From Vicinamibacterales bacterium (GTDB lineage Bacteria > Acidobacteriota > Vicinamibacteria > Vicinamibacterales > UBA2999): 64,000 bases of DNA. The position numbers and the translations under genes are program-made. Below the pieces are notes generated by a model that saw only the letters and a list, made by a program, of their open reading frames with translations, was not told the DNA's origin and did not search any database. Positions 10,967-36,026 of this stretch are shown here, piece after piece. Positions within the stretch are counted from its first letter, which is position 1, and each line of letters opens with the position of its first letter. Location: NCBI GenBank assembly GCA_035293405.1, contig DATDOE010000090.1:138282-202281 (forward strand), in the 5' to 3' direction.

Positions 10967-10978
10967 CCGACCGGTCGG
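10967..10978. promoter_or_regulatory. Perfect 12-bp palindrome CCGACCGGTCGG between convergent genes
   Basis: Same core as the 7466 and 8311 sites. It has no loop, so it is a protein-binding-type palindrome rather than a hairpin. Confidence 0.25.
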
Positions 10979-11029
10979 TTGGAGACGGGTCGCGCGGCGT
11001 CCGGAGACGCGCACGGGCGCCCTGGGCCC

Positions 11030-12415
<1,386 letters not shown>

Positions 12416-12458
12416 GACAGCTCCTCGACAGGAGCGGTCAGCCGCATCCTGCACACCT

Positions 12459-12476
12459 ACCGACCGGATGGTCGGT
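12459..12476. promoter_or_regulatory. Inverted repeat ACCGACC-GGAT-GGTCGGT upstream of the cytochrome/monooxygenase gene (candidate operator variant)
   Basis: It lies 44 nt upstream of the 12415 start. The half-sites are identical to those of the CGACCGGTCG palindromes but carry a 4-nt spacer. Confidence 0.35.
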
Positions 12477-12549
12477 CAGTCACGGAGTGTACGCCTCGAG
12501 GTGGTTCCACTGCAACCCAGGGCGTGGCGGGGTTGTGCGACCCTCGCGT

Positions 12550-14457
12550 TCACGCCTTTCGGGCGAAGTAATCGATCACGGCGGCGGCGGCCTTGGCGCC
12601 CACCACCGAGGCCAGTTCCTCGCGAGTCCCGCGGCGCACGCCGGCGAGGCTGCCAAACCTCGTGAGCAGTGCCCGCCTCCGCCGCGCGCCGATGCCCGGA
12701 ATCTGATCGAGCTCCGAACGCAGGTCGCGCATCGACCGCGCCTTGCGGTGAAACGTCACGGCGAAGCGGTGCGCTTCGTCGCGAATCCGCTGGATGAGGA
12801 GCAGGGCCGGATCGTTCTCCGCCAGCACCACGGGCTCGGCACGATCTCGCGTGAAGAGGAGCTCTTCCTTCTTGGCAATGCCCACCGCCACCAGGTTCGC
12901 CAGACCGATTGACGCCAGCCCGTCGTACGCCGCGGAGAGCTGCCCCTTGCCGCCATCGATGACGATGAGATCCGGGAACGGACCGCCAGCCTCGAGGACC
13001 GCGCGATATCGCCGCTGCACCACCTCACGCATCGCCGCGAAGTCGTCGGAACCGAAAGTGGGCTTTGGGCTTTGGGCTCTCGGCTCTAGGCTTTCGGCTT
13101 CAGGTTCTCCGTTTTGGAAGTTGGGAGTTGGCCTCAGGTTCAGGTTGGGAGTTGCCAGTCCTCTAATCCGGAATTTCCTGTACTCGTTCCTCTTCATCCG
13201 CCCGTCCTCGCACACCACCATCGCGGCGACCGTTTCACTGCCCTGAATGGTCGAGATGTCGAAGCACTCGATCCGGCGCGGCATCGACGGCAGGCCCAGC
13301 GCGCTGCGCAGCGTTTCCAGCGCCTCGAAGTGCGAAGCCGTGATGGCGTTGAACCGCGTCCGATAGGACAGCTCGGCGTTGCGAGTCGCCAGTTCCACCA
13401 GCGCGCGCTTGTCGCCGCGCTGAGGCACGTGAATCTTGACTCGCCTGCCGGAGCGGCTCGACAGCCACTCTTCCATCGCCTCCACGTCCTCGATCTCCAC
13501 CGGCAGGTTGATCTCCGAGGACGGCACACGCAGCTCGTAGAACTGACCGACCGCCGTATGCATCACATCGGCGTCACCGTCGGCGATCGCACCCGGGTCG
13601 CTCGTCATCTCCACGCGTTCGACAACCCGGCCGCCCCGAATCTGAAACACCTGGATCGCGACGCCGCTCGGGCCGATCTTCAGGCCGAACACGTCCCGGT
13701 CGCCGAGTCCCGCGGTCGCGACCTTCTGCTGCCGATCCCGGAGCGTCTGCACCGTGCGCATGGCGTCGCGCAGCTGCGCCGCCTCTTCAAACCGCTCGCC
13801 TTCGGACGCCGCCGCCATGCGGCCGCGCAACGTCTCCACCAACTCGTCGTTGCGTCCTTCGAGCAGCAGCCTGGTGCTGACCACCGCCACTCCGTACTGC
13901 TCCTGCGAGCAGATCTCGGCGACGCACGGCGCGATGCACCGCTTGATGTCGTACTCGAGGCACGGCCGCGGGCGCTGTCCGGTGATGACCTCGTTGCACG
14001 ACCGGAGGCCGAACAGCCGGTGCGCCAGCGTCATCGTCCGGCGAGCGAGCTTGGCCGGCAGGAACGGACCGGCGTAGAAGTCGGCGCCCTTCTCGACGGC
14101 GCGGGCGACGAGGACCCGCGGGAACGCCTCGCCCGTGGTCAGACGCAGATACGGGTAGTTCTTGTCATCGCGCAGAAGGATGTTGTATTTAGGCGTGCGC
14201 TGTTTGATCAGGTTGTTCTCGAGCGCGAGCGCCTCCATTACCGAGTCGGTAATGATGACCTCGAGGCGGGCGATGTCGTCGAGGAGGGCGTCGTGACGGG
14301 GGCTCATGCCGTGGGCGCCGAGATAGCTGCGCACGCGGTCGCGCAGCGAGCGCGCCTTGCCGACGTAGATCGTCTCGCCGGCGGCGTCGCCCCACAGATA
14401 CACCCCGGGCTGCTCGGGCAAACGCGCGATCTGATCCTTGAGGTCGTGAACAGGCAT
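12550..14457 (-). CDS. uvrC: Excinuclease ABC subunit C
   Basis: It has a GIY-YIG N-terminus (QPGVYLWGDAAGETIYVGKARSLRDRV), a UVR domain, an endonuclease domain and a C-terminal HhH. It contains an approximately 30-aa low-complexity insert (see repeat 13060..13157). Confidence 0.95.
   Translation of the reverse strand: MPVHDLKDQIARLPEQPGVYLWGDAAGETIYVGKARSLRDRVRSYLGAHGMSPRHDALLDDIARLEVIITDSVMEALALENNLIKQRTPKYNILLRDDKNYPYLRLTTGEAFPRVLVARAVEKGADFYAGPFLPAKLARRTMTLAHRLFGLRSCNEVITGQRPRPCLEYDIKRCIAPCVAEICSQEQYGVAVVSTRLLLEGRNDELVETLRGRMAAASEGERFEEAAQLRDAMRTVQTLRDRQQKVATAGLGDRDVFGLKIGPSGVAIQVFQIRGGRVVERVEMTSDPGAIADGDADVMHTAVGQFYELRVPSSEINLPVEIEDVEAMEEWLSSRSGRRVKIHVPQRGDKRALVELATRNAELSYRTRFNAITASHFEALETLRSALGLPSMPRRIECFDISTIQGSETVAAMVVCEDGRMKRNEYRKFRIRGLATPNLNLRPTPNFQNGEPEAESLEPRAQSPKPTFGSDDFAAMREVVQRRYRAVLEAGGPFPDLIVIDGGKGQLSAAYDGLASIGLANLVAVGIAKKEELLFTRDRAEPVVLAENDPALLLIQRIRDEAHRFAVTFHRKARSMRDLRSELDQIPGIGARRRRALLTRFGSLAGVRRGTREELASVVGAKAAAAVIDYFARKA
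12560..12669 (-). repeat. Resident copy of the 110-bp uvrC 3' repeat
   Basis: Identical to 3311..3420. Confidence 0.95.
13060..13157. repeat. Heptamer tandem array plus short direct repeats, in frame inside uvrC
   Basis: The plus strand reads GGGCTTT GGGCTTT GGGCTCT CGGCTCT AGGCTTT CGGCTTC (6 x 7 = 42 nt), then AGTTGGGAGTTG twice. It encodes TPNLNLRPTPNFQNGEPEAESLEPRAQSPKP between the conserved FRIR and DDFAAMREV. Confidence 0.8.
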
Positions 14458-14509
14458 GAGCTACGATGGTGAGTTCACTTACGATGCGAACCCTTAATTG
14501 TAGCCATCA

Positions 14510-15280
14510 ATGACGTTGACCGGCTTCATCGGCGCCGTATGCATGTTCCCGCTGCGGGCGATCATCGCCGCCAGCGTGGCGCTTGGCATCCACCCGAACA
14601 TGCTCACGCTCATTGGCGTGCTGATCAACGTGGTGGCCGCCGTCGCCCTCGGATTCGACCACTTCCTTCTGGCGTTCGTCATCATGATTGTCGCGAATAT
14701 CTTCGACTTCATCGATGGCAAGGTGGCGCACATCACCAACACCGTGTCCCGCTTCGGCGCCTTCTGGGACTCCACACTCGATCGCTTCTCCGACATCGCG
14801 CTGTTCCTGGGCCTCATCTACCTGTACGCCGATCTCCGCCGTACCGACTACGTCATGGTGGCGTCGCTGGCGATGATGTTCTCGATCATGACGAGCTACG
14901 CGCGCGCCCGCGCCGAATCGCTCATCGAGAAATGCGAAATCGGTTTCATGGGGCGCCCCGAGCGCATCGTCTTGTTCTTGATCGGCGCGCTATTCAATCG
15001 GATGGCGGCCGTGCTGTGGGTGATCCTCGTCCTGGCGATCGTTGCCGTCGCCAACCGCGTCCACTATACGTATCTCGCACTCAACAACAAGCCGATCCCG
15101 ACTGGCTCGAACGTCGTGAGCCGCATCTTCTGGCGCGCGTTCTTCTGGCACGACGAGCGCGCGACGCTGCCCTACGACCTCTGGGTGATCGCGATCCTCG
15201 CCTTCATCCTGCTGACGCCCCCGGATTGGCTTGGCGACCCGACGGCTACCGGGCTCGGCGTCTGGGCATTCCTGAAGTAG
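14510..15280 (+). CDS. CDP-alcohol phosphatidyltransferase family protein
   Basis: Motif DFIDGKVAHITNTVSRFGAFWDSTLDRFSD (DGx2ARx8Gx3Dx3D-type) and multiple TM helices. Confidence 0.8.
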   Translation: MTLTGFIGAVCMFPLRAIIAASVALGIHPNMLTLIGVLINVVAAVALGFDHFLLAFVIMIVANIFDFIDGKVAHITNTVSRFGAFWDSTLDRFSDIALFLGLIYLYADLRRTDYVMVASLAMMFSIMTSYARARAESLIEKCEIGFMGRPERIVLFLIGALFNRMAAVLWVILVLAIVAVANRVHYTYLALNNKPIPTGSNVVSRIFWRAFFWHDERATLPYDLWVIAILAFILLTPPDWLGDPTATGLGVWAFLK

Positions 15281-15282
15281 CC

Positions 15283-15477
15283 GGTTCCATGTTCCAGGTT
15301 CCAGGTTCCAGGTTCGTGTTCCGAGCTCCGCTTCTGGGTTCTGAGCTCCGGGTTCACCGTTCGCGCGGGATGACCCCGGCCACGAGCCCGAACGCCCGGA
15401 ACATCGAACCCCGAACATCGAACGCCGAACTGGAACCTCGAACACGAACCCGGACCGTGGAACCGGGAACCGGGAAC
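15283..15477. repeat. Inverted pair of GGTTCC/GGAACC-type short tandem repeat arrays (long imperfect hairpin)
   Basis: Left arm GGTTCCATGTTCCAGGTTCCAGGTTCCAGGTTCGTGTTCCGAG. Right arm ...CTCGAACACGAACCCGGACCGTGGAACCGGGAACCGGGAAC. Confidence 0.8.
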
Positions 15478-15479
15478 TG

Positions 15480-16256
15480 ATGTCGATGTCGACGGACTCC
15501 GATGAAGCCGCGCGAGCGCTCGAGGCCCTCAAGGACTTCGGCCCCGTTCTGGCGATCAAGCTGTACCGTCTGACGCTCGAACCGGCGCCGGCGGTCCCAT
15601 TGCTGCCCTGCCTCGACCATGAGGCGATGCTCCATGAGGGGATCACTCCGCACGCGGCCGCCTACGTGCAGGACGCCGCCTCCGGCGATTTGCACGAGCT
15701 CGTCTTCATCCCTGCGAAACACCGCATCGAGGTCGACACCGTTTCGACGTGGGGTGAGTGCTCGACGGACTCGCACCAACGGCTGCTCGCCACGATCGCG
15801 GAGCGCTTCCGCAACTACCGTGTGCACGTGCAGGGACCGTCGTGGTGGCGCGGCGAACGCCGGGTGGCGCATGCCTGCCGGGCGCAAGTGTCGCTGCGCG
15901 ACGTGCTGCTGGGGAAAGATACCGCCACGGTGAAGGCGAACATCGATCGCCTCCACACCATCGGCTCGCTGATGGAGAAGCAATCACGTGTGGCGTCGTG
16001 GGGCGTGCGCACAGTGACCGGACCGCTGCTCGCCGCGGCCGGCGTGGTGCTCTTCCTGGTGTTCGGATCCCTGACCGCCACTCTCGGTGAGAGCGTCGTG
16101 ACGGTGCTGCGGTACTCCCTGATCAGCCTGCTCGGCGGAGTGTTCCTCTACTACGGCCTGAAGGCCGTGCAGCTCACGGCGATGTCCAATCGTGTATGGA
16201 AACGGACCGCGGAGTACAACCTCATCCTCGCGGAGAGGAGAAGGCTGGGAACGTAG
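15480..16256 (+). CDS. Hypothetical protein with two C-terminal TM helices
   Basis: 258-aa ORF with GC3-rich codons. The opposite-strand ORFs look like antisense shadows. It is flanked on both sides by repeat arrays. Confidence 0.5.
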   Translation: MSMSTDSDEAARALEALKDFGPVLAIKLYRLTLEPAPAVPLLPCLDHEAMLHEGITPHAAAYVQDAASGDLHELVFIPAKHRIEVDTVSTWGECSTDSHQRLLATIAERFRNYRVHVQGPSWWRGERRVAHACRAQVSLRDVLLGKDTATVKANIDRLHTIGSLMEKQSRVASWGVRTVTGPLLAAAGVVLFLVFGSLTATLGESVVTVLRYSLISLLGGVFLYYGLKAVQLTAMSNRVWKRTAEYNLILAERRRLGT

Positions 16257-16260
16257 ACCT

Positions 16261-16398
16261 GGTTCGTGGTTCGCGGTTCGTGGTTCGCGGTTCGTGGTTC
16301 GCGGTTCGTGGTTCGCGGTTCGTGGTTCGCGGTTCGCGGTTCTTGGTCGTGCGAAGGGTTGGGCCGTTTCGACCTCCAGATTACGAACCAAGAACCAG
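16261..16398. repeat. Heptamer array (GGTTCGT GGTTCGC) x5 ... GGTTCTT GGTCGTG with a distal complementary arm ACGAACCAAGAACC
   Basis: Read directly from the sequence. It sits between the convergent 15480 gene and ku. Confidence 0.85.
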
Positions 16399-16399
16399 A

Positions 16400-17278
16400 C
16401 TACCCCGCCTTCCTCTTCTTCGCCCCATTCGCCGCGGCCTTCGCCTTCGTCACCGGCTTCTTGATGATCGCCTTCGCGGCCTTCTTCTTGTCTCCACTCA
16501 CCGAATCGAGACTTCGGCGCAGCGCTTCCATCAGATCGACGACCTTGGGCGGCTCCTGCTCCTCCGGCGCCACGATCTCTTCACCCGCGATCTTCGCGTC
16601 GATGATCTTCCGCAGCCCTTCCTTGTAGTCGTCCTTGTAGTCCTTCAGGTTCAGCTCGCCATCGAAGGTCGAGATCACCTGCTTGGCGAGCTTCATCTCT
16701 TCGGGCTTCACCTTCGCCGGCAGGGAGCTCAGCTCCTCGATCTGATCGATGCTGCGGATCTCGGCATCGTGATGCAGCGTGTACATCACGAGTCCCTTCT
16801 TCTTCGGCTTGATGGCCACGAGGTACTCGCGTCCATACAACGCCACTTTGCCGATGCCGGCTTTGCCCGCCATCCCCTCGCGCATCACGGCGAAGGCCGA
16901 TGCCGCCATCGGGCCGTCGGGCGCCAGGTAGTACGCCTTGTCGACGTAGATCGGATCGATCGCCGATTCGTCGGTGAACTGCGACAGGTCGATGACGCGC
17001 GTCGACTCGACGCGGACCTTCTGCAGGTCTTCCTCCTCGACGACGACGTAGCGGCCCTTTTCGAACTCGTAGCCTTTCGCCAGCTCCGCATTCGACACCT
17101 CGCGCTCGCAGTGCGGGCACCAGCGCTTCTGCTGAATCCGCGTCTGGCACTCGGCGTGGAGCTGGTTGAATGACAGCGTCGCCGCCGATTCCGTCGCCGG
17201 GAACACTTTGATCGGGATGGTGACCAGGCTGACCTTGAGGTAGCCCTTCCAAGTCGGACGTGGTGGCATAACGGCCAT
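16400..17278 (-). CDS. ku: Ku protein (non-homologous end joining)
   Basis: MAVMPPRPTWKGYLKVSLVTIPIKVFPATE...YLAPDG... with a Lys-rich C-terminal tail. In frame with ORF 16400..17734. Confidence 0.9.
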   Translation of the reverse strand: MAVMPPRPTWKGYLKVSLVTIPIKVFPATESAATLSFNQLHAECQTRIQQKRWCPHCEREVSNAELAKGYEFEKGRYVVVEEEDLQKVRVESTRVIDLSQFTDESAIDPIYVDKAYYLAPDGPMAASAFAVMREGMAGKAGIGKVALYGREYLVAIKPKKKGLVMYTLHHDAEIRSIDQIEELSSLPAKVKPEEMKLAKQVISTFDGELNLKDYKDDYKEGLRKIIDAKIAGEEIVAPEEQEPPKVVDLMEALRRSLDSVSGDKKKAAKAIIKKPVTKAKAAANGAKKRKAG

Positions 17279-17298
17279 TATCGGTTCAAACGGTTCAA

Positions 17299-17880
17299 TT
17301 AAACAGAATCCTCGCCGTCCCGGCTGCCCAGGTTGAGGCCAGCGCCTCCGATTTGGATGTCGTGCGCCTTGATTCGGTCCCGGAGGACCCGGCGGGCCGC
17401 CCCATAGTGCGGCCCGGGGACCTCGAGCCGGCGGGCGATGCTGTGGCCGTGCGAGATGAGAATCAGCGTCACCGCCCCCTCGTCCTTCCACGACACGGCC
17501 GAGATCTGCGACCAGGGCATGAAGCCGCTGTCGGACCAGACGCCCGCCTGATAGAACCCGCGCCCGATGCGGGCGGCCAGCGGGAACAGGCACATGTAGT
17601 AGATGAACATCATCGCCTCGCCGAACAGCGAATATGGCGGGCGTTTCAGGAGGATTTCGACCACGATCAACAGGCCGAGGATCACCCCGAGCAAGAGACT
17701 GATCGCGTAGTAGCGGGGCTTCGGACCGGCCCACACGAGGAGCGTGAACCGCTTGGCGCGGTGATAGCGCACGAGCTCAACGGCCACCTTGATGTTGGCA
17801 ACGAGAAAACCGAGGCCGAAGAGCAACAGCAGCCGCGGCGCCAGCCAGGCGAACCAGGGAATCAGGGCCTCCGAGTCCAT
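17299..17880 (-). CDS. Membrane protein, unknown function
   Basis: 193-aa ORF with 3-4 TM helices in the N-terminal half and a soluble C-terminal half. Confidence 0.55.
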   Translation of the reverse strand: MDSEALIPWFAWLAPRLLLLFGLGFLVANIKVAVELVRYHRAKRFTLLVWAGPKPRYYAISLLLGVILGLLIVVEILLKRPPYSLFGEAMMFIYYMCLFPLAARIGRGFYQAGVWSDSGFMPWSQISAVSWKDEGAVTLILISHGHSIARRLEVPGPHYGAARRVLRDRIKAHDIQIGGAGLNLGSRDGEDSV

Positions 17881-17894
17881 CGGACGATGTCAGG

Positions 17895-18530
17895 TCAGGA
17901 GGCCTGCCAATTGGGGTCCGCGACCGGGGCACGGACCCGCGTCGTCTGAACCGCGGGCGGGTCGTTGGCGAGGAGCGGATCGAAACATCGCCGGCACCGG
18001 GCCTCGTACATCCCCTGCGCCCCCACGAGGACGCGATCGCCGCTCGCCACGAGGCGCTGCGTATGGTTGGCCGGGTTGCCGCACACCATGCAGATGGCGT
18101 GGGTCTTGGTGATGTATTCGGCGATGGCCAGCAGCTGCGGCATCGGCTCGAACGGCTTGCCCAGGTAGTCCTGGTCGAGGCCGGCAACGATCACGCGCAG
18201 CCCGCGGTCGGCCAGCGCGCTGCAGATGGCCGGCAGCTCCTGGTCGAAGAACTGCCCTTCGTCGATGCCGACGACCTCGGTTTCGCCCTCAATGGCGTCG
18301 ATCAGCTGCCGCGAGGTTTCCACGGCCCGCGACTCGATGCGCATCTCGCCGTGAGACACGATGTGATCGTCGGAATAGCGGGTATCGATCGCGGGCTTGA
18401 AGACCTGGACTTTCTGGCGGGCGATGCGCGCACGTCGCAGGCGGCGAATCAGCTCTTCGCTCTTGCCGCTGAACATGCTGCCGACGATGACTTCAATCCA
18501 GCCTTGGATAGGCTGGCGGACGACATCCAT
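17895..18530 (-). CDS. tdk: Thymidine kinase
   Basis: P-loop [11 protein letters not shown], and C-terminal zinc Cys pairs (CMVCG...CRRC). Confidence 0.9.
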
Positions 18531-18538
18531 TTGATTCA

Positions 18539-18627
18539 ACCACGAAGCCCACGAAGAATACGAAGGTCGCGAAGAACGAAACCTAATAGCATTTCGTGTC
18601 CTTCGTCGCCTTCGTGCCTTCGTGGTT
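18539..18627. repeat. Long imperfect hairpin built from approximately 9-nt NNNACGAAG units
   Basis: CCACGAAGCCCACGAAGAATACGAAGGTCGCGAAGAACGAAA - loop - TTTCGTGTCCTTCGTCGCCTTCGTGCCTTCGTGG. It lies between efp and tdk. Confidence 0.8.
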
Positions 18628-18630
18628 AGG

Positions 18631-19194
18631 TCACGCGCGCGACAAGTATTCCCCAGTTTCGGTGTTGACGCGAATCAGATCGCCCGGGTTCACAAACGGC
18701 GGCACCTGCACCACGAGGCCGGTCTCGAGCGTGGCCGGCTTGACCTGGTTGCTGGCGGTGGCGCCCTTGATGCCGGGCACGGTGTCCATCACCTTGAGGT
18801 CCACAGCCTGTGGCAGCTCGATGCCCACCGGCTCCTCGCCGTAGAACTCCACCTCGATCGTCATTTCGGACTTCAGGTAGTTCACCGAGTCGCCGAGCGC
18901 CTCGCTCATGATGTGGATCTGTTCGTACGAGACGACGTCCATGAAGTGATAGGTCTCGCCCTCGTGGTAGAGATACTGCATTTCGCGCTGCTCGAGCGTG
19001 GCGCGATCGAGCGTATCTTCCGAGCGCAGCTTCTGATCCGACATCGCGCCGTTGCGGATGTTGCGCAGCTTCACGCGCACGAACCCGCGCAGGTTGCCGG
19101 GGGTCACATGCTGGAGCTCGAGAACCCGGAACAGGTCCTGGTCAACCTTGATGAGCATGCCCTTCTTGAGACGCGTTGCTTGTATGGACGCCAT
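18631..19194 (-). CDS. efp: Elongation factor P
   Basis: [45 protein letters not shown]... In frame with ORF 18631..19662. Confidence 0.95.
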
Positions 19195-19266
19195 AATTGA
19201 ATCCGTAGATCCTCGAGATCGTAGCACAGGGCTTACCCGCGCCTCTTCGTGGTACGATTTCCCCGC

Positions 19267-19671
19267 ATGGCGTTCGCGCGCTGGGATCCGATTCGCGACC
19301 TGCTCGCCATCCAGCAGCGCCTGGACCGTTTCGCGCCAGGCCCTGCCGGCTGGAGTCCGCCGGTCGATCTCCTCGAAACGGCCGATCACTACATCATCAC
19401 GGCAGAACTGCCCGGCGTTCACCGGGAGGATCTGCACATCTCGATGCATGACGAGGGCCGGATCACGCTCTCGGGCGTGCGGCGCGAGCGCGCGCAGGCA
19501 TACGAGCAGTATCACCGGGTCGAGCGCGGACACGGCAGCTTCAGCCGCACATTCCAGTTGCCGATCCCCGTCGATGCCGATCGCATCACAGCGGATCTGC
19601 GCGACGGCGTTCTCACGGTGACCTGCCCCAAGGCCGCCGACACCGCCTCGCGCCGCATCCACATCACCTAA
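19267..19671 (+). CDS. Hsp20/alpha-crystallin small heat-shock protein
   Basis: PPVDLLETADHYIITAELPGV...GSFSRTFQLP...DGVLTV. Confidence 0.85.
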   Translation: MAFARWDPIRDLLAIQQRLDRFAPGPAGWSPPVDLLETADHYIITAELPGVHREDLHISMHDEGRITLSGVRRERAQAYEQYHRVERGHGSFSRTFQLPIPVDADRITADLRDGVLTVTCPKAADTASRRIHIT

Positions 19672-19679
19672 GCCACATC

Positions 19680-20849
19680 ATGAATCGACGATTGATCTCC
19701 GCAGCGCTCCTGCTCGCGTGCTTTGCCGCGGGCGTGCTCGTGGCCGGACGGTTCCGCGACGCGACCGAGGCGGTGGCGCAGGCACCGGCCGGGAGAACGG
19801 CGGTCACCGCGCCGGGGCCCACCGCGGCTGCCGGCACGCTCACCGACTTCAGCCGCATCGCCGAGCGAACGATCCCTGCCGTGGTGAACGTCCAGGCGCG
19901 GCAGATCGTCCGCCGCATGGTCCCGCGCGATCCGTTCTTCACGTTCTTCGGCGACCCCGGTGACGTCTACGGGTCGCGGCGCGGCGTCGAGAACAGCCTG
20001 GGCTCCGGCGTGATCGTCAGCGGCGACGGCTACATTCTCACGAACAACCACGTGGTCACCGGAGAAACCAGGCCTGTCACCATCGAGCAGCTCGATGTCA
20101 CGGTGGTGCTCGCCGACAAGCGGGAGGTGCCCGCCAAGGTCATCGGCGTGGACACGGCGACGGACCTCGCCCTGCTCAAGATCGACGCGAAGGATCTCCC
20201 CACCATGCCGTGGGGCGATTCCTCGAAGCTGAAGGTCGCGGAGTGGGTCCTGGCGATCGGCAATCCGTATCAGCTCAGTCAGACCGTCACCCTCGGCATC
20301 GTCTCCGCGGTCGGGCGGACCAATCTTGGCGTGTCGACCTACGAAGACTTCGTGCAGACCGACGCCGCGATCAATCCCGGCAACTCAGGCGGCGCGCTGG
20401 TGAACGGCCGGGGAGAGCTGGTCGGCATCAACACCGTCATCTTCAGCCAGAGCGGCGGCTACCAGGGCATCGGGTTCGCCGTGTCGAGCAACCTGGCGAG
20501 GCGGGTCGTGAACGATCTTCAGCAGTACCAGGAAGTCCGTCGCGGGTCGATTGGCTTGGGACCGGATAATCTCGTGACCGTGACGACGAGGATTGCGGCC
20601 GAGCTCACGCTCCCGGATACGCGAGGCGTCCTGATCTACTCGATGAGCAGGAGCTCGCCCGCCTACCAGGGCGGCTTGCTGCCCGGCGACGTCGTCGTCG
20701 GCTTCAACGGCACGCCTGTCGAGGATCCCGGACATTTCGCGCGCATGGTGTCGGACGCGCGGATCGGGAGCACGGCGACGGTCGGCGTGATCCGCGAAGG
20801 CAAACGCGTCGAGCTGAAGATTGCCGTCGCGCGCTTGACGAATCGCTGA
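19680..20849 (+). CDS. HtrA/DegP-family periplasmic serine protease with PDZ domain
   Basis: Catalytic triad contexts TNNHVV, DLALLKI and GNSGGALVN, plus a C-terminal PDZ-like region. Confidence 0.9.
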   Translation: MNRRLISAALLLACFAAGVLVAGRFRDATEAVAQAPAGRTAVTAPGPTAAAGTLTDFSRIAERTIPAVVNVQARQIVRRMVPRDPFFTFFGDPGDVYGSRRGVENSLGSGVIVSGDGYILTNNHVVTGETRPVTIEQLDVTVVLADKREVPAKVIGVDTATDLALLKIDAKDLPTMPWGDSSKLKVAEWVLAIGNPYQLSQTVTLGIVSAVGRTNLGVSTYEDFVQTDAAINPGNSGGALVNGRGELVGINTVIFSQSGGYQGIGFAVSSNLARRVVNDLQQYQEVRRGSIGLGPDNLVTVTTRIAAELTLPDTRGVLIYSMSRSSPAYQGGLLPGDVVVGFNGTPVEDPGHFARMVSDARIGSTATVGVIREGKRVELKIAVARLTNR

Positions 20850-20859
20850 TACCAATCGG

Positions 20860-21951
20860 ATGCCTGCCAACTGGCCGGAACTGACGCTGGCACTGGCGCT
20901 GGTGGTCGTGGCCGCGTACCTCGTCGCGGACTTCGTCTCCCGCCGTGTGGAGTCGGTGCTCCGTACGATCGTCCCCGAGGAGCGCGGGCATCTACTGGTC
21001 GAGAGCCCGCGCGCGGTCGTGCGGACGCTGATCTTCCTCATCACGGCCGCGGCGCTCTCGATACCGGCGTTGCGACTGGTGGGCTACCGGTCGCTCTTTC
21101 GCAATCCCGAAGCCTTCACGGAATGGGTGCTGAGCGCGGGCCTGCGGATCGCGGTGATCGCGGTGGCGGCCTACATCATCATCCGCGTCGGCACCGCTGC
21201 CGCGCGCCGGTTCGAGCGCGCGATGTCGGCCGGCACCGGCCTCAACGTCATCGAGCGAACCAAGCGCGCCCGGACGCTCGGACGCCTGCTGCAGAGCACG
21301 CTGGTCGCCGTGGTCGTGGTCATCGCCGGGTTGACGGTGCTCCGCGAGCTGGGCATCGACATCACGCCCGCGCTCACCGGCGCCGGGATCGTCGGCCTGG
21401 CGGTCGGCTTCGGCGCGCAAACGCTGGTGCGCGACGTCATCTCAGGCTTCTTCCTCATCCTCGAGGACCAGGTGCGCGTGGGCGACGCGGCGGTCGTCAA
21501 CGGGCAAGGTGGCATCGTGGAGGCCGTCAACCTGCGCACCATCGCGCTCCGCGATGAAGAGGGGACGGTCCACGTCTTCCCCAACGGCGAGGTGAAGACG
21601 CTCGCCAACCGCTCGAAGGACTTCGCCTACTACGTCATCACGGTCGGCGTGAGCTGGGACGAGGACCCGGACCGCGTGGCGGAGGCGATGACAGCGGCGG
21701 CTGAGACGCTACAAACAGATCCGGAAATGCGGGTGCACATCCTCGAGCCGCTCGAGGTATACGGCGTCGACGGGTTCGAAGCCGCACACCTCGTGCTCAA
21801 GGCACGCATCAAGACGGTACCGATGAAGCAGTGGGTCGTGGGACGCGAGCTGCGGAAGCGGATCGCCAGGATCTTCAGGGAACGCGGGATTCGGGTGGCG
21901 GGAACTCAGGTTGTGCAGATTGCGACTCAGAAACGAGACACGGCTTCATAG
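20860..21951 (+). CDS. Mechanosensitive ion channel (MscS family)
   Basis: TM helices followed by GFGAQTLVRDVISGFFLILEDQVRVGD...G.VEAVNLRTI. Confidence 0.85.
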   Translation: MPANWPELTLALALVVVAAYLVADFVSRRVESVLRTIVPEERGHLLVESPRAVVRTLIFLITAAALSIPALRLVGYRSLFRNPEAFTEWVLSAGLRIAVIAVAAYIIIRVGTAAARRFERAMSAGTGLNVIERTKRARTLGRLLQSTLVAVVVVIAGLTVLRELGIDITPALTGAGIVGLAVGFGAQTLVRDVISGFFLILEDQVRVGDAAVVNGQGGIVEAVNLRTIALRDEEGTVHVFPNGEVKTLANRSKDFAYYVITVGVSWDEDPDRVAEAMTAAAETLQTDPEMRVHILEPLEVYGVDGFEAAHLVLKARIKTVPMKQWVVGRELRKRIARIFRERGIRVAGTQVVQIATQKRDTAS

Positions 21952-21956
21952 GCAGT

Positions 21957-21984
21957 GTTTGAGTTTTGCGTTTTGAGCCTTGAG
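21957..21984. repeat. Short heptamer array GTTTGAG TTTTGCG TTTTGAG CCTTGAG
   Basis: Read directly from the sequence. It lies between convergent mscS and the leuA-like gene. Confidence 0.6.
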
Positions 21985-21996
21985 TTACTTCCGAAG

Positions 21997-23244
21997 CTAC
22001 ACCCCGTGCCCGTAGCCCGATTCCTGAATCGGGTGATGCGACGCGGCTGAGGGCGTGTCGAACGGATCGATCGCGTCGTGTACGGCGCCGTGGCCGGGGC
22101 GACGCGCGTTCACCGCGATGCGGACGTCCTGATCGGTCAGGATCTTCTTGTCGTCGGCGATCACCATCAGTGCGCGATACACCTCGATCAGCTCCTCGCC
22201 CTCGATCTGGATGCCCAGGTCGGCGCAGCGGCGCTGCACGGCATGGCGGCCTGAGTGCTTGCCGAGCACGAGGGGATTCCACGGCGCGCCCACGTCCTCG
22301 GCGCGCATGATCTCGTAGGTACGGCGGTCCTTCAGCATCCCGTCCTGGTGAATGCCGGCTTCATGGGCGAACGCATTGCGCCCGACGACGGCCTTGTTCA
22401 CCTGGACGCTCTGGCCGGTGAGCTGCGTCAGCATCTCGCTCGTCGGGTAGATCTGCGTGGCCTCGACGCTCGTGGTGTACGGCATCCGGTCGGGCCGGAT
22501 CCGGAACGCCATGACGATCTCTTCGAGCGCGGCATTCCCCGCCCGCTCACCGATCCCGTTGATCGTGCACTCCACCTGGCGGGCGCCGCCCTGCACCGCC
22601 GCCAGCGTGTTGGCGACCGCCAGCCCGAGGTCGTCGTGGCAGTGGGCGCTGAACACGACGGTGTCGGCGTTGGCCACTCGCTCGCGAATCCGGCGAAAGA
22701 AATCCAAGGTCTCGTCCGGCGTGCTGAAACCAACCGTGTCGGGCAGATTGATCGTCGTGGCGCCGACGGCAATCACGGCGTCAACGACGCGGCAGAGGAA
22801 ATCGAAGTCGCTTCGCGTGGCGTCCTCGGCCGAGAACTGCACGTCGAAGGTGTGATGACGCGCGTAGCGCACGGCATCGACGGCCGCCTCGAGGCACTGC
22901 TCGCGCGTCATGCGCAGCTTCGCCTGGAGGTGCAGGTCGGACGTGGCGATGAAGGTATGAATGCGACCCTGCGCGGCCGGCTCGATGGCCCACGCGGCGC
23001 GCTCGAGATCGGCGCGGTGGCAGCGGGCCAGGCATGCGATGATGGGGCGGCGGATCTCGGTCGCAATCTGGCGCACGGCATCGGCATCGGCCGGCGACGC
23101 GATGGGAAACCCGGCTTCGATGATATCCACGCCGAGCGCATCGATCTGACGCGCCAGCTGCACCTTCTCGGACGGCCGGAGCGAGAATCCGGGCGCCTGC
23201 TCGCCGTCGCGAAGCGTGGTGTCGAAGATGCGGACGTGCTCCAT
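21997..23244 (-). CDS. 2-isopropylmalate/citramalate/homocitrate synthase family enzyme (short form without the C-terminal regulatory domain)
   Basis: [27 protein letters not shown] and the [10 protein letters not shown] motif. At 415 aa it is shorter than canonical LeuA. Confidence 0.85.
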
Positions 23245-28941: not shown

Positions 28942-31900
28942 TCAGCGCGCCGCGTAGGCGTTGGAGCGGCCCGTCGCGAGCACCATCCGGAGCGCGTGAC
29001 CGGTGTACGACGCGTCATTCTGCGCGACCTGTTCGGGCGTGCCCGTCGCGACGACGCGGCCGCCAGCGTCGCCGCCCTCGGGGCCCAGATCGATCACGTA
29101 ATCCGCCGTTTTGATCACGTCGAGGTTGTGCTCGATCACGAGCAGGGAGTGGCCGGCCTCGACCAGCTTGCGGAACGCGGCCAGCAGCTTCGCGATGTCG
29201 TCGAAGTGCAGACCCGTCGTCGGTTCGTCGAGGATGTAGAGCACGCGCTCGCCGCCGAAAGACGCCAGGTGCGCCGCGATCTTGATCCGCTGCGCTTCCC
29301 CACCCGAGAGCGTCGTCGCCGGCTGCCCCAAGCGAAGATAGCCGAGGCCGATCTCGTCGAGCACCTGCAGGCGCCGCAGCACCTTCGCCGACTGACTGAA
29401 GAACGTCAGCGCCTCGCGCACCGTCATCTCGAGCACCTGGTGGATCGACCTGCCTCGATAGCGCACGTCGAGCACCGTCTGCTTGAACCGCATGCTGTCG
29501 CACTGGTCGCAGGGGACGAACACGTCGGCGAGGAACTGCATCTCCACGCGCACTTGGCCCTCGCCCTGACACGCCTCGCAGCGGCCACCAGGCACGTTGA
29601 ACGAGAAGTGACTCGCCGTCAGACCGCGCGCCTTGGCGTCCTTGGTCAAGGAGAACAGCTCGCGGATCGGGTCGAAGGCCTTCAGGTAGGTGACCGGATT
29701 GGACCGCGGCGTACGGCCGATTGGCGTCTGATCGACCAGCGCGACGTCGGTGATGTATTCGAGCCCCTCGAGACCCCGGAATGTGCCGACCCGGCGGTCC
29801 CAATCACCCTTGGCGCGCTTGATCGCCGCGTAGAGGACGTCGTGCACCAGCGTTGACTTGCCGGAGCCGCTGACACCCGTGACGCAGGTGATCGTATTCA
29901 GCGGAATCTCGATGTCCACGTTCTTCAGGTTGTGCTCGCTGGCGCCCTTCAGCTTGATCTTCTGTCCAACCCCTCGCCGCCGTGGTGACGGGACCGGAAT
30001 CGCCAGCTCGTTGCGGAGGTACTTCGCCGTCAGCGACCGCGGCTCCAGGAGCAGGCCGGGCAAATCGCCCGAGTACACGACGCGGCCGCCCTGCTCACCG
30101 GCACCGAGCCCGATGTCCACGATGTGATCGGCAACGCGAATCATGTCCTCATCGTGTTCGACGACCAGGACGGTGTTGCCCTGATCGCGCAGTTGCCGGA
30201 GGATGTCGATGAGCCGCTGGTTGTCGCGCGAGTGCAGGCCGATCGACGGCTCGTCCAGCACGTAGAGCGTGCCGACGAGCGCCGAGCCGAGCGACGTGGC
30301 TAGGTTGATGCGCTGCGATTCGCCACCGGACAGCGTCGACGACAGCCGATCGAGCGTGAGGTAGTCGAGGCCGACGTCGCTCAGAAACGTGAGCCGGCGC
30401 TTGATCTCGCGCAAGATCTTGTCGGCGACGGTGGTCTCCTTCTCACTGAGCTCGAGATCCGCGAAGAAGCGCTGGGCCCCGAGCACGGTGAGTGCCGACA
30501 CCTCGTCCACCGTCCGCCCCCCCACCCGCACGTTGCGCGCCTCGCGACGCAGCCGCGCGCCGCCGCAGTCCGGACAGGCCAGATAGCCGCGGTACCGGCT
30601 GAGGAACACGCGGACGTGCACCTTGTACTTCTTCTTCTCGAGCCACCGGAAGAACCCGCGAATCCCTTCGAAATCGCCGTCGCCCTCGACGACGAATCGC
30701 CGCTCTTCTTCTGACAGATCGCACCACGGCACGTCGAGGCGCAGCGTCGTCTTCTTCGCCGCGCGCTTCATCTCGGCGAGCTGCGCCCGATAGTGCGGCT
30801 TGCTCCACGGCTCGATCGCGCCCTGGGTGATCGACTTCGATGAATCCGGCACCACCAGATCCATGTCGAGCTCGATGATGTTGCCGAAGCCATGGCACAT
30901 CGGGCACGCGCCGAACGGGTTGTTGAACGAGAAGAGCCGCGGCTGCGGCGTTTCGTAGGTGATGCCGCAGGTCCGGCAGTCGAACTTCTCCGAGAAGACA
31001 AGTCTCCGGGATTCGGGATTCGCGATCCGGGACTCGGGACTCGGGACTCGGGACTCGACGAACGCAGAATCCTCCGGATCCCGGATCCCGGATCCCGGGT
31101 CCCGGCCGAGTATCACGGCGAAAGCCGCGCCGCCGCCTTCGCGATAGGACGTCTCAATCGAATCGGTCAGCCGGCTTCGCAGATCGCCGTCGATGCGCAC
31201 GCGATCGACGACGACCTCGAGCGTGGTCTTCGACTTCAACGCCCCGCGATCGACCTCATCGAAGCTCACGGCCTGGCCGTCGATCAACAGGCGGCCGTAG
31301 CCGCGCCGGCGCAATCCCTCGACCGTCTCGACAATTGGATCGAGACCGTTCTTCGCGGCCGGTTGCTCGACATCGTCACCGTCGGCTTCGTCACCGCCCT
31401 CCGCCTCGGCCGCCGGCTTCGCCCCAGCCGACATCGCCACAATCGGCAACTCGAACCCGATCAAGAGGCGTGTGCCGGTGGGTAGCTCGCCGAGCTGCCT
31501 GGCCACCACTTCCGCCGTCTCACGGATCACTTCCTGCCCGCACTGGCGGCAGAACGTCCGCCCCACGCGCGCGAAGAGCAGCCGCATGTAGTCGTGGATT
31601 TCGGTCGTCGTGCCGACGGTCGAGCGAGGGTTGCGGACGCTGTTCTTCTGCCTGATGGCGATGGCCGGGCAGATGCCTTCGATCTTGTCGACGTCGGGCT
31701 TCTCCATCCGCTCCAGGAACTGCCGCGCGTAGGCCGATAGGGACTCGACGTACCGCCGCTGACCCTCGGCGTAGATCGTGTCGAAGGCCAGCGATGACTT
31801 GCCGGACCCGCTGACGCCGGTGATGATGATCAGCTTGCCCGCAGGCAGCGTGACATCGATGTTCTTGAGGTTGTGCGTCCGCGCGCCGCGGACGATCAGC

Positions 31901-31959
31901 GGCCTGCGGACCTTCTGCGGCGTGGTGGCGTCGGGCGTCCCTACAGTGGCGAAATCCAT
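28942..31959 (-). CDS. uvrA: Excinuclease ABC subunit A
   Basis: Two ABC ATPase modules (GVSGSGKSSLAF, GVSGSGKSTLV) and zinc-finger Cys pairs. It carries an approximately 35-aa in-frame repeat-derived insert (see 31006..31106). Confidence 0.95.
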   Translation of the reverse strand: MDFATVGTPDATTPQKVRRPLIVRGARTHNLKNIDVTLPAGKLIIITGVSGSGKSSLAFDTIYAEGQRRYVESLSAYARQFLERMEKPDVDKIEGICPAIAIRQKNSVRNPRSTVGTTTEIHDYMRLLFARVGRTFCRQCGQEVIRETAEVVARQLGELPTGTRLLIGFELPIVAMSAGAKPAAEAEGGDEADGDDVEQPAAKNGLDPIVETVEGLRRRGYGRLLIDGQAVSFDEVDRGALKSKTTLEVVVDRVRIDGDLRSRLTDSIETSYREGGGAAFAVILGRDPGSGIRDPEDSAFVESRVPSPESRIANPESRRLVFSEKFDCRTCGITYETPQPRLFSFNNPFGACPMCHGFGNIIELDMDLVVPDSSKSITQGAIEPWSKPHYRAQLAEMKRAAKKTTLRLDVPWCDLSEEERRFVVEGDGDFEGIRGFFRWLEKKKYKVHVRVFLSRYRGYLACPDCGGARLRREARNVRVGGRTVDEVSALTVLGAQRFFADLELSEKETTVADKILREIKRRLTFLSDVGLDYLTLDRLSSTLSGGESQRINLATSLGSALVGTLYVLDEPSIGLHSRDNQRLIDILRQLRDQGNTVLVVEHDEDMIRVADHIVDIGLGAGEQGGRVVYSGDLPGLLLEPRSLTAKYLRNELAIPVPSPRRRGVGQKIKLKGASEHNLKNVDIEIPLNTITCVTGVSGSGKSTLVHDVLYAAIKRAKGDWDRRVGTFRGLEGLEYITDVALVDQTPIGRTPRSNPVTYLKAFDPIRELFSLTKDAKARGLTASHFSFNVPGGRCEACQGEGQVRVEMQFLADVFVPCDQCDSMRFKQTVLDVRYRGRSIHQVLEMTVREALTFFSQSAKVLRRLQVLDEIGLGYLRLGQPATTLSGGEAQRIKIAAHLASFGGERVLYILDEPTTGLHFDDIAKLLAAFRKLVEAGHSLLVIEHNLDVIKTADYVIDLGPEGGDAGGRVVATGTPEQVAQNDASYTGHALRMVLATGRSNAYAAR
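31006..31106. repeat. Inverted heptamer arrays, in frame inside uvrA
   Basis: GGGATTC GGGATTC GCGATCC GGGACTC x4 - spacer - CCGGATC x3 CCGGGTC. It encodes DPGSGIRDPEDSAFVESRVPSPESRIANPESR just before the conserved LVFSEKFDCRTCG. Confidence 0.85.
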
Positions 31960-31983: not shown

Positions 31984-32667
31984 CTACAACTCCGCGAGTT
32001 GGGCGTTTCTTCGCGGCTCGAGCCGTGCCAGCGCCAGCGTGTTCTGTCCAACCGCGAAGGCCAGGGCGATCAGCAGCCCCACGATAGCGACCAGACCGCC
32101 CACGTCGAAGAGCGGCATCCGACCCAACAGTCCAACGTTGACGTGCGGATTCCCTCGAAGCGCAATCGCGCCAATCGCCAGGATAATGCGCAGCTCAGTC
32201 GGACCCACGCCGGCGAACGACATGCGGAAGACCCCGCGAACGGCAGTGGCGAGAAAGACCTCGCCGGACACGAGCAGGTAGGCCACCAACAGGGCGAGCG
32301 CGATCACCGGCGTCATGAAACCCGAGCACGCCAGGCCGGTCAGGAGACACGTGATGCCGACGATGTCGACGACGTGGTCAACGTAGAAGCCATAGCGCGG
32401 CCGCTCGACGCCGCGGACACGAGCGAGGGTCCCGTCCAGACTGTCGCCGAACCAGTTGATCGCGAGGGCGGCGACGACAACCCAAAGCGCCCGGACATCA
32501 AAGCGTGCGAGCCAGAAGCCGACGCCGGCCAGCATCATCGCCCCGAGAGCCAACCCAGTCAGATGGTCCGAGTGGATAGAGGCGGGCATGTGGCTCGCCA
32601 TTCGAGCGAGGAGCCGCTTTTCGACGGCGGCCAGCAGACTGCGGTGTTCGCGCACATGGTCGGGCAT
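31984..32667 (-). CDS. CDP-alcohol phosphatidyltransferase family protein
   Basis: DSLDGTLARVRGVERPRYGFYVDHVVD motif. The probable start is MPDHVREHRS. Confidence 0.8.
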   Translation of the reverse strand: MPDHVREHRSLLAAVEKRLLARMASHMPASIHSDHLTGLALGAMMLAGVGFWLARFDVRALWVVVAALAINWFGDSLDGTLARVRGVERPRYGFYVDHVVDIVGITCLLTGLACSGFMTPVIALALLVAYLLVSGEVFLATAVRGVFRMSFAGVGPTELRIILAIGAIALRGNPHVNVGLLGRMPLFDVGGLVAIVGLLIALAFAVGQNTLALARLEPRRNAQLAEL

Positions 32668-32721
32668 CTGATATCTCCTGTCCCGTAAGGTGCGTACTCT
32701 CGGCAAATCGGCTCACACCCC

Positions 32722-32766
32722 GGGATTCGGGACTCGGGGCTCGGGGCTCGGGACTCGGGACTCGGA
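32722..32766. repeat. Heptamer array GGGATTC GGGACTC GGGGCTC GGGGCTC GGGACTC GGGACTC
   Basis: Same unit family as the uvrA insert. It is followed by the hairpin GGCGGGTCT-N8-AGACCCGCC (32784-32809). Confidence 0.85.
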
Positions 32767-32847: not shown

Positions 32848-34551
32848 ATGCCTGAATCCGGCCTCGTTCTCACGCTTGCCGGAGGCTTCGGCGCCGCCCT
32901 CGTCTTCGGCTACATCACGCAGCGTCTCGGTCTCTCGCCCATCGTCGGCTATCTCATTGCCGGGGTGGCCGTGGGGCCAAGCACGCCCGGGTTCATCGCC
33001 GACATCCACATCGCCGAGCAGTTCGCGGAGATCGGCATCATCCTGCTGATGTTCGGCGTCGGGTTGCAGTTCCACCTCGAGGAGCTGCTCGCGGTTCGCC
33101 GGATCGCGATTCCAGGCGCCATCGCACAGAGCCTGATGGCGACGGCCCTCGGCGCGTTCGCCGCTCACGCCTTCGGCTGGACGTGGCCGGCGGCCATCGT
33201 CTTCGGCCTGGCGCTATCGGTCGCCAGCACCGTCGTCCTCGTGCGCGTTCTTTCGGACAGCCGCAAGCTCCACACTCCGGCCGGACACATCGCCGTCGGC
33301 TGGCTCGTCGTCCAGGATGTACTCACCGTCATTGTCCTGGTGCTCTTACCTGCGCTCAAGGGGGAGCTCACCCCGGCCGCACTCGCCACGAGCCTCGCCG
33401 TCACGTTGATCAAAGTGGCCGGTCTCGTCGCTGTCACGGCCATCATCGGACGGCGGGTGATCCCGTTGATCCTCGATCGCATCGCTGCGACGCGATCGCG
33501 CGAGCTGTTCACGCTGACTGTGCTCGCGCTGGCCATCGGCCTGGCGGTCGGGTCCGCGGCCGTGTTCGGCGTGTCGATGGCGCTCGGTGCATTCCTCGCA
33601 GGCATGGTCGTGGGGACCTCCGACTACAGCCTTCGCGCCGCCACGGATGCATTGCCGATGCGCGACGCGTTCGCGGTGCTGTTCTTCGTGTCGGTTGGCA
33701 TGTTGCTGCGCCCCTCGGCGATTCTGGCCTACCCCGCGTTCACCATCGCCGCGCTGGCCATCGTCATGGTTTGCAACCCGCTCACCGCGGCGGCCGTCGC
33801 CTCGCTGATGCGCTATCCGATTCGAACGACGGCGACCGTGGCGATGTCGCTGGGGCAGATCGGCGAGTTCTCGTTCATCCTCGTGACGCTCGGCCGAGAC
33901 CTGAATATCGTGCCGGCCGAAGCCGTCGATGTGGTCGTGGCCACGGCGATCATCTCGATCACGTTCAACCCGCTTGCGTTCAGAGCCATTGAGCCCATCG
34001 ATCGCTGGTTCGCCCGGAGACGGCTGGCGCAGGTGACGACGGACACAGAGGCGGTGGAGGTCGGCGCGACCTCTTCACTCGAGCCTGATGAGCGCGCGAT
34101 CGTGATCGGATACGGACCAACCGGCCGCACCGTCACCCGGCTGCTTCGCGAGAACGGCATCTTGCCAACCGTCGTGGACCTGAACATGGACGCGGTGCGC
34201 GAGCTGCGCGAGAGCGGTGTGTCGGCCGTCTACGGGGATGCGAGGCATGCCGACACGCTGGTGTCCGCGGGACTCCCCCACGCCGCCACGCTCATCGTGA
34301 GCGGCGCGGATACCGGCACGGCGGAGATTCTTCAGGGCGCCAGGGCGATCAACCCCCACGTCCACATCTTCGCCCGCGGCGGCTATCTGCGTGACGTGCC
34401 CGCGCTGCGTGACGCCGGCGCCGAGCAGGTGTTCTCGGGTGAAGGCGAGGTGGCGCTGGCGATGACCGAGGCCGTGCTGCGTCGCTTGGGAGCGACGGCG
34501 GATCAGATCGACCGGGAGCGGGCGCGGGTGCGGAGAGAGCTGTTCACCTAG
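32848..34551 (+). CDS. Kef-type (CPA2) cation:proton antiporter with C-terminal RCK/TrkA-N domain
   Basis: SPIVGYLIAGVAVGPS...AEIGIILLMFGVGL, and a C-terminal IVIGYGPTGRTV Rossmann motif. Confidence 0.9.
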   Translation: MPESGLVLTLAGGFGAALVFGYITQRLGLSPIVGYLIAGVAVGPSTPGFIADIHIAEQFAEIGIILLMFGVGLQFHLEELLAVRRIAIPGAIAQSLMATALGAFAAHAFGWTWPAAIVFGLALSVASTVVLVRVLSDSRKLHTPAGHIAVGWLVVQDVLTVIVLVLLPALKGELTPAALATSLAVTLIKVAGLVAVTAIIGRRVIPLILDRIAATRSRELFTLTVLALAIGLAVGSAAVFGVSMALGAFLAGMVVGTSDYSLRAATDALPMRDAFAVLFFVSVGMLLRPSAILAYPAFTIAALAIVMVCNPLTAAAVASLMRYPIRTTATVAMSLGQIGEFSFILVTLGRDLNIVPAEAVDVVVATAIISITFNPLAFRAIEPIDRWFARRRLAQVTTDTEAVEVGATSSLEPDERAIVIGYGPTGRTVTRLLRENGILPTVVDLNMDAVRELRESGVSAVYGDARHADTLVSAGLPHAATLIVSGADTGTAEILQGARAINPHVHIFARGGYLRDVPALRDAGAEQVFSGEGEVALAMTEAVLRRLGATADQIDRERARVRRELFT

Positions 34552-35977: not shown

Positions 35978-36026
35978 GGTTCTTGGTTCTTGGTTCTTGG
36001 TTCTTGGTTCTTGGTTCTTGGTCGTG
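35978..36026. repeat. Heptamer array GGTTCTT x6 + GGTCGTG
   Basis: Read directly from the sequence. It has the same GGTTCTTGGTCGTG end as the array at 16336-16349. Confidence 0.9.

Follow-up and report, generated by a model that had tools for sequence, protein, structure and literature searches.

Short G-rich heptamer repeats of the GGGNATC type have been described in Xanthomonas (GGGAATC) and Nostoc (GGGGAYT) (Rehm et al. 2015, PMC4692102). Between 7 and 11% of them overlap open reading frames (ORFs); most are intergenic and lie near stop codons, and their function is unknown (PMC4692102). They occur most often as four units, form G-quadruplexes and are frequently arranged as convergent pairs on opposite strands that are able to form stem-loops; intragenic copies were treated by Rehm et al. 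only as under-represented and were left out of the transcript analysis (PMC4692102). Here we analyze a two-armed heptamer block that lies in frame inside the uvrA gene on a 64,000-nt stretch of DNA (the window), taken from a Vicinamibacterales bacterium (contig DATDOE010000090.1 of assembly GCA_035293405.1, forward-strand positions 138,282 to 202,281). Like the GGGNATC repeats, the uvrA block has units of 7 nt composed of G3 and a 4-nt tail (GGGATCC in one arm, GGGACTC/GGGATTC on the antisense strand of the other), its sense arm carries four G3 tracts, and its two arms form a convergent pair with the G tracts on opposite strands. Unlike them, it is found in Acidobacteriota (Vicinamibacterales) and has several unit variants, and the complete pair is contained in a conserved gene, where it is read in frame, and has stayed at one codon position throughout a large clade. 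Long-term in-frame persistence of heptamer repeats at one protein loop was not found described in the literature. The explanation that we favor, with a probability of about 0.68, is that the block is a long-resident, self-renewing copy of the GGGNNNN heptamer hairpin repeats of this lineage, which is tolerated in a permissive turn of UvrA and on which the gene imposes constraints of reading frame and stop codons.

Palindromic elements of Rickettsia (RPEs) are dispersed consensus copies of ~100-150 bp that are found in frame in conserved housekeeping genes, where the additional stretches of peptide are tolerated (Ogata et al. 2000, as cited in PMC10969869). As far as the citing account describes RPEs, the uvrA element is like them in being palindromic, otherwise intergenic repeat DNA that sits in frame in a conserved gene at a permissive place, and unlike them in that loci have nothing but the 7-nt unit in common, the spacer has no second copy in the 64-kb window and the arrays vary by the number of units, with nothing that points to transposition. 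In E. coli K1, the poly-psi variable-number tandem repeat of neuO is a heptanucleotide tract that begins 2 nt after the start and is present in 2-93 copies; it serves as a phase-variation switch, and its heptads raise activity (PMC3046976). As in neuO, a heptamer repeat lies in the coding sequence (CDS) of uvrA, three units make one 7-residue heptad within an unfolded segment, and full-length protein results solely from repeat lengths that preserve the frame. The uvrA element differs from the neuO tract in being internal (codons 286-318 of 1005) and two-armed, with tracts of 4 perfect units. Tandem repeats are also known to create intrinsically disordered regions in proteins of Borgs (PMC9879509). 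In both cases, fast-evolving intragenic tandem repeats add disordered segments to proteins. The intragenic repeat units of Borgs are reportedly multiples of three, whereas the uvrA unit is 7 nt long, so that its three phases are read in turn and just certain total lengths are allowed.

The window has a G+C content of 65.5%, and its nearest public relatives are metagenome-assembled genomes of Vicinamibacterales (Acidobacteriota). For comparison, uvrA loci were collected from 21 of the best-matching relatives (17 Vicinamibacterales-like loci and 4 from other lineages; single loci are designated below by L numbers). Within the window gene (Table 1), Tandem Repeats Finder (TRF) detected two arrays of period 7, one at 31007-31057 (7.3 copies, consensus CGGGACT, 88% matches) and the other at 31074-31105 (4.6 copies, CCGGATC, 96% matches). 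Read along the forward strand, the block consists of CGGGATT twice, CGCGATC, CGGGACT four times, ACGAACGCAGAATCCT, CCGGATC three times and CCGGGTC. There is no stop in the block within the 1005-codon ORF, and the translation runs ...VILGRDPGSGIRDPEDSAFVESRVPSPESRIANPESRRLVFSEKFDCRTCG...; the insert amounts to 99 nt, or 33 codons. As RNA, 6/7 positions of each unit in the window arms are paired (5 Watson-Crick, 1 G-U). A preliminary description of this DNA had stated that the heptamer block lies inside the uvrA frame without interrupting it and that the arms are partially complementary, and both statements hold. The spacer that it recognised is also present, with a length of 16 nt (31058-31073) in place of the 17 nt then given.

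The names of UvrA domains used here follow PMC7835731. In alignments to the UvrA structures 2r6f (Geobacillus stearothermophilus) and 3pih, residues 286-318 of the window protein are unmatched and fall between residues 258 and 261 of the 2r6f chain, a place where the solved structures have just 2 residues. The insertion postulated earlier is thus real, and the alignment to 2r6f reduces its size from about 35 added residues to 33. In an AlphaFold2 model (built with a 102-sequence alignment), residues 287-316 have a predicted local distance difference test (pLDDT) score below 50 and no secondary structure, and are placed between the strands 278-284 and 319-323. The UvrA fragment 4dfc, which binds UvrB and Mfd, aligns with window residues 208-282. 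According to the model, the insert is an extended beta-hairpin turn immediately before the FSEKFDCRTCG zinc-module segment, the position at which a surface turn had been anticipated; because 4dfc aligns to 208-282, this turn is assigned, with presumed domain limits, to the C-terminal edge of the UvrB-binding domain.

A second disordered, length-variable acidic loop of UvrA is present at residues 177-204 (~31348-31431), in the UvrB-binding domain and likewise with pLDDT below 50. At this loop an independent (CCGGATC)x4 array is found in L083 (3578-3619) and a 21-nt tandem repeat in L009. The array in the second loop of L083 indicates that new arrays arise in other disordered loops.

To cover the protein family, a search limited to UvrA residues 225-365 was made, and 113 full-length UvrA clusters were inspected. 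In one large subclade of Vicinamibacterales, more than 100 UvrA clusters have heptamer arrays at the identical site. A left-arm signature, DxGxGx[RG]D, is the read-through product of (GGGANNN)n and occurs in 81/113 of the full-length clusters, with one heptad in 78/113; most of them also have a right-arm signature, for example ESRIPNPESR (encoded by GAATCCC) or DPRSPIPDP (encoded by GATCCCC). The left-arm peptide follows the unit: GSGIRD derives from GGGATCC or GGGATCA, GLGTRD from GGGACTC and GSGIGD from GGGGATC. At the DNA level, 10 two-armed orthologues and the window (n = 11) share the order (GGGANNN)n, spacer, (NNNTCCC)n on the sense strand, with units and copy numbers that vary by lineage. 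Three further loops of heptamer type, namely a one-directional GAACC-type array in L084 and decayed AGCCC-type units in L015 and L021, bring the total to 14. An assembly artefact was ruled out, as independent ENA, JGI and NCBI assemblies share the architecture at the identical codon.

When a uvrA tree was built with the loop masked beforehand, the insert-bearing proteins formed one clade of 118 leaves, and 11 outgroups (7 basal Vicinamibacterales-like loci, 2 other Acidobacteriota and 2 Ignavibacteriales) were without the element. In the same alignment stretch, the outgroup loops measure 9-26 residues versus 40 in the window. Thus, compared with solved UvrA structures, with other phyla and with outgroup Acidobacteriota, the segment is an insertion, as had been proposed; a homologous non-repetitive segment across the phylum was looked for and was not found. 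As far as sequence comparison can tell, these data show that the element dates back at least to the ancestor of a large Vicinamibacterales subclade, and that it persisted at one site during turnover of unit sequence and copy number.

A short-loop allele, AI[ND]AD[TS]GER, is present in L001 (3768-3873; 89% identity to the window) and L011 (3741-3846), and uvrA is intact in both. The two loci are nested in the carrier clade at separate, well-supported places (Shimodaira-Hasegawa-like support 0.96-0.999), their flanks follow their own clades, and their alleles are not simple empty sites of the long allele. Either two losses (parallel deletion) or transfer by recombination would account for the short allele of L001 and L011.

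The preliminary description had regarded the block as an intergenic-type element inserted in frame into uvrA, which stands, and had drawn a parallel to RPEs; a one-off or recent arrival of an RPE-like mobile palindrome does not agree with the data, as more than 100 clusters share the site. That a small mobile palindromic element (RPE-like, or resembling a miniature inverted-repeat transposable element) was recently inserted into this particular uvrA is the least probable of the explanations considered here. The palindromic architecture would be expected from such an event, the same units recur in a nearby intergenic array, and the close relative L001 is without the element. However, the codon position is the same clade-wide, and the spacer is homologous to that of the relative L081 but diverged from it. 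Moreover, no second copy of the spacer was found in the 64-kb window, even with 3 mismatches allowed, and no terminal inverted repeats or target-site duplications distinct from the arrays were seen at the uvrA element.

All 14 heptamer-type loops read as DNA, on the assembled contigs, are in frame with lengths that are multiples of 3, and no out-of-frame allele was seen among them. Avoidance of stop codons can be recognised in several places. First, the complement of the left unit GGGATCA is TGATCCC, which would put TGA in frame, and the right arm uses CGATCCC. Secondly, the sole TGATCCC unit (in L089) sits in the phase CCT GAT CCC, where TGA is not read. Thirdly, in L083 the unit variants GGGACTC/A/G make up a 21-nt super-repeat that is locked to the frame in such a way that CTA is read and TAG never. 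Multiple-of-three lengths and stop avoidance together are the best available evidence, of a comparative kind, that the element is translated and not removed. They indicate that the block is read through as a predicted disordered loop of ~33 residues and point to selection on uvrA as the force that removes frame-breaking or stop-creating variants.

Loop lengths range from 19 to 49 amino acids and are spread, 7-residue steps not being seen, which indicates that indels of the spacer and compensating 1-nt changes also occur. L081, the relative with the most similar loop (85% protein identity to the window), gives an example: its right arm differs from that of the window by two heptamers and one compensating base, so the changes do not consist only of clean three-unit steps. 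Out-of-frame intermediates may therefore have existed, and this difference, along with the four perfect tandem heptamers inside the CDS and the precedent of neuO for heptamer tracts (PMC3046976), could be taken to suggest a contingency (phase-variation) locus, in which gain or loss of a single 7-nt unit switches uvrA on and off. Such a switch seems very improbable, since every loop is in frame, the tract is located at codon 286 of 1005, far from the start of the gene, its two arms are short tracts and no ecological rationale is apparent.

The arms were then compared with the rest of the gene at the nucleotide level. Third codon positions are 53-66% identical between all gene pairs, and synonymous sites are near saturation; in all lineages, nevertheless, the arms have a lag-7 identity of 0.68-0.95. 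Good tandem repeats in genes whose synonymous sites are nearly saturated indicate that the arms are continually re-homogenised and are not fossils. In the colinear part of the window and L081 elements, the arms differ at 1/62 positions and the spacer at 5/18, and the third codon positions of the gene differ at 39.5%. The conservation of the arms relative to third positions has P ~1e-12, and relative to the divergence of whole-gene nucleotides P = 3e-5. The diverged spacer argues against a recent transfer of the whole element. In the same pair, third positions are 91% identical in the 33 loop codons versus 61% gene-wide, a pattern contrary to that expected from selection on the peptide.

The last result bears on whether the loop has been co-opted by the protein, for example as a flexible, charged Pro/Ser/Gly-rich tether that aids the UvrA-UvrB or UvrA-Mfd hand-off. 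Such a role would agree with the retention of the loop in nearly all members of a large clade, with its location at the edge of the UvrB-binding domain and with the existence of fossilised, non-repetitive versions that are protein-conserved in one subclade, e.g. GRDSGSGVRDSKTGDRGPGTGDERIV. But besides the pattern at third codon positions, the peptide is conserved neither in length (19-49 residues) nor in sequence (GSGIRD, GLGTRD, GDGRRE), and the short-loop alleles of L001 and L011 stand in otherwise intact genes. Co-option by the protein is thus quite unlikely.

Period-7 arrays were surveyed in the 64-kb window and in 24 relatives' loci. A lag-7 scan found 7 period-7 regions in the window, whereas shuffled sequence and scans at lags 6 and 8 gave 0 each; 5/7 are intergenic or abut stop codons, and both CDS-internal arrays belong to excision-repair genes (uvrA and uvrC). 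The relatives' loci contain 15 lag-7 arrays in 182 kb, versus 2 in 509 kb from other phyla. The earlier claim that the uvrA heptamer unit also forms an intergenic array (then placed at 32722-32766) was confirmed by TRF, which puts the array between the divergent genes 31984-32706 (-) and 32848-34551 (+). Words of three GGGAYYC units occur window-wide solely in the uvrA block and at 32722-32763, where the chance expectation is 0.01. The remaining arrays of the 64 kb tested share just the unit with the uvrA block or belong to other unit families.

The insert in uvrA is not unique, because uvrC of the window has one of a similar kind (Table 1). It consists of AAGCCCA-type and degenerate CCAACTN units, lies between RIRGLA and GSDDFAAMREV, and was detected by TRF as an array at 13059-13100 with the unit TGGGCTT. 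Loops of heptamer type occupy this site in most of the 120 closest UvrC clusters listed, e.g. REPRAQSPEPKAQSPEP, GSGIRD...DPGSRIPDP and PESRIPNPESRIP. Although it is striking that two excision-repair genes are affected, we take the target to be permissive loops of any gene more probably than repair genes as such.

Folding of the window block as RNA gave -61.3 kcal/mol (z-score -3.1 against dinucleotide-preserving shuffles); as DNA the z-score is ~-1.2 to -1.3, and the fold is weak in that form because each unit contains one G-U pair and one mismatch. All of the two-armed loops (11/11) fold better than dinucleotide shuffles, with z-scores of -2.0 to -6.6 for RNA and -1.3 to -6.9 for DNA. The sense G arm has exactly four G3 tracts in 7/11 orthologues read as DNA, and the C arm has 4-12 tracts; the forward-strand arm of the window has 6 G tracts. 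The motif G3N4G3N4G3N4G3 is present in the sense arm and represents a putative G-quadruplex. A known RNA family was considered as well, but Rfam gave only far sub-threshold hairpins resembling microRNA precursors, which were dismissed as a generic hairpin shape.

It is conceivable that the ORF harbors a functional nucleic-acid module (dual coding), whose RNA hairpin or G-quadruplex, or DNA structure, tunes transcription, translation pausing or mRNA decay of uvrA, and of uvrC, with selection acting on the nucleotides instead of the peptide. The arms indeed show far stronger conservation than the spacer or synonymous sites and they co-vary, all 11 orthologues have hairpin potential, the four-tract G arm (7/11 as DNA; 78/113 clusters with one heptad) matches the preference of GGGNATC repeats for four units (PMC4692102), and the helix of the window, which relies on G-U pairs, is hence better as RNA than as DNA. 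On the other hand, there is wide variation in unit sequence, arm length and stem quality, and the arms of L087 share only a GGGA/TCCC core. Only one arm, or decayed units, are found in L084, L015 and L021, and L001 and L011 have lost the element from an intact uvrA. Four tracts may also be no more than an inherited state, as 1, 4 and 7 are the counts that can be reached by in-frame steps of three units. We therefore regard dual coding as doubtful. A more specific proposal, that the uvrA and uvrC arrays are selected coding-sequence elements whose four-G-tract arm switches between G-quadruplex and hairpin and so provides an order-wide link to the expression of nucleotide-excision repair, the peptide being whatever the genetic code permits, we consider unlikely.

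In the explanation that we favor, a long-resident repeat tolerated in a UvrA turn, the block would be a still-slipping copy of the inverted heptamer arrays that fill the intergenic spaces of the lineage. The arrays would change by replication slippage, and unit variants would spread within an array; single substitutions suffice to connect all of the unit types found at the uvrA site (GGGATCC, GGGACTC, GGGATCA and GGGAACC; GAGTCCC and GAGCCCC). Whatever process or constraint maintains the intergenic copies would also keep the arms repeat-like and complementary, with hairpin and/or four-tract G-quadruplex potential, and the peptide would be a by-product without a sequence-specific role in repair. 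In favor of such mutual complementarity, native arm pairs are more stable than chimeric ones (-1.88 vs -1.56 kcal/mol per nt; permutation P = 0.004).

Several points weigh against this explanation. First, conservation of the arms exceeds what a purely neutral passenger would predict, and a function at the DNA or RNA level may be involved. Secondly, some of the pairs in the comparison of native with chimeric arms are related and so not independent, which makes that test moderately strong at most. Thirdly, the hairpin of the window is among the weakest (RNA z-score -2.6 to -3.1, DNA ~-1.3). Fourthly, the short-loop allele is found in two well separated clades, a distribution that simple vertical descent with one loss does not explain. 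Finally, the 120 proteins compared were ranked partly on loop similarity, and the share of the order that carries the element is overestimated accordingly.

Table 1. Heptamer-derived features of the window and the genes in which they lie (positions within the 64,000-nt window).
Feature	Position	Strand	Basis
uvrA CDS, intact	28942..31959	-	1005 codons + stop; ORF list, translation; E = 2.6e-285 to UvrA 2r6f; AlphaFold mean pLDDT 82.9
In-frame insert in uvrA, codons 286-318 (RDPGSGIRDPEDSAFVESRVPSPESRIANPESR), predicted disordered loop	31006..31104	-	no counterpart in 2r6f/3pih; pLDDT <50 at 287-316
G-rich arm (sense): GGGACCC, then (GGGATCC)x3; four G3 tracts; encodes DPGSGIRDP	31074..31105	-	TRF, sequence
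Spacer, non-repetitive, hairpin loop, 16 nt	31058..31073	-	sequence; unique in window
C-rich arm (sense): (GAGTCCC)x4, GGATCGC, (GAATCCC)x2; encodes ESRVPSPESRIANPESR	31007..31057	-	TRF
Intergenic array, units CGGGATT/CGGGACT/CGGGGCT, 6.4 copies	32721..32765	+	TRF, sequence, word search
In-frame heptamer-derived insert in uvrC, codons 439-466, ~28 residues	13060..13143	-	CDS 12550-14457 (14460 with the stop codon); translation; TRF; unmatched in UvrC 3c65

Heptamer arrays with units of other families (GGTTCCA/GAACC, TGGTTCG x13 and GGTTCTT) were observed between genes at 15283-15315 together with 15387-15477, at 16260-16351, at 35978-36022 and at 52467-52496. The arrays of these families start a few bases from stop codons, and one of them is an inverted pair ~70 nt apart. 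In 3 relatives a heptamer array or inverted pair begins right at the uvrA stop (L004:2996-3032, L013:2151-2188 and L083:6003-6101); in contrast to these, no array was seen after the stop codon of the window uvrA. Elsewhere in the window, a gene for a TMEM175/DUF1211-like membrane protein (57051-57833, minus strand) is flanked by inverted arrays of 9-nt units, GATCGTTCG and CGAACGACC (57009-57052 and 57611-57662). The array upstream of this gene reads (SFG)n at or before the N-terminus, the start codon being ambiguous.

In the Logan data, unitigs of the source-soil metagenome match both flanks of the arrays without differences and break inside the arrays, at a word depth ~500 times that of the flanks. 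Summed contig word depth over the uvrA arrays (31012-31107, run X1) was ~100-700x that of the flanks (~4,600-22,900 vs ~35). A word depth so far above that of the flanks indicates that the heptamer units are very abundant in soil DNA and that assemblers break contigs there. Array joints found in other metagenome samples were rejected as alleles of the window uvrA, since they come from relatives with short or different loops.

Repeats whose unit is not a triplet are usually thought to be excluded from bacterial coding regions or to serve there as on/off switches; here a two-armed 7-nt repeat is resident clade-wide in a repair gene. The uvrA loop offers a natural system in which the maintenance of a repeat at the nucleic-acid level can be separated from selection at the protein level, since the evolutionary rates of arms, spacer and synonymous sites are far apart. 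For annotators, low-complexity inserts of the heptamer type in Vicinamibacterales proteins are to be taken as real. The uvrA locus, with a phenotype that is easy to score (UV survival), makes it possible to test what sustains GGGNNNN heptamer hairpins, and repeat DNA of this kind creates and remodels disordered protein loops in bacteria.

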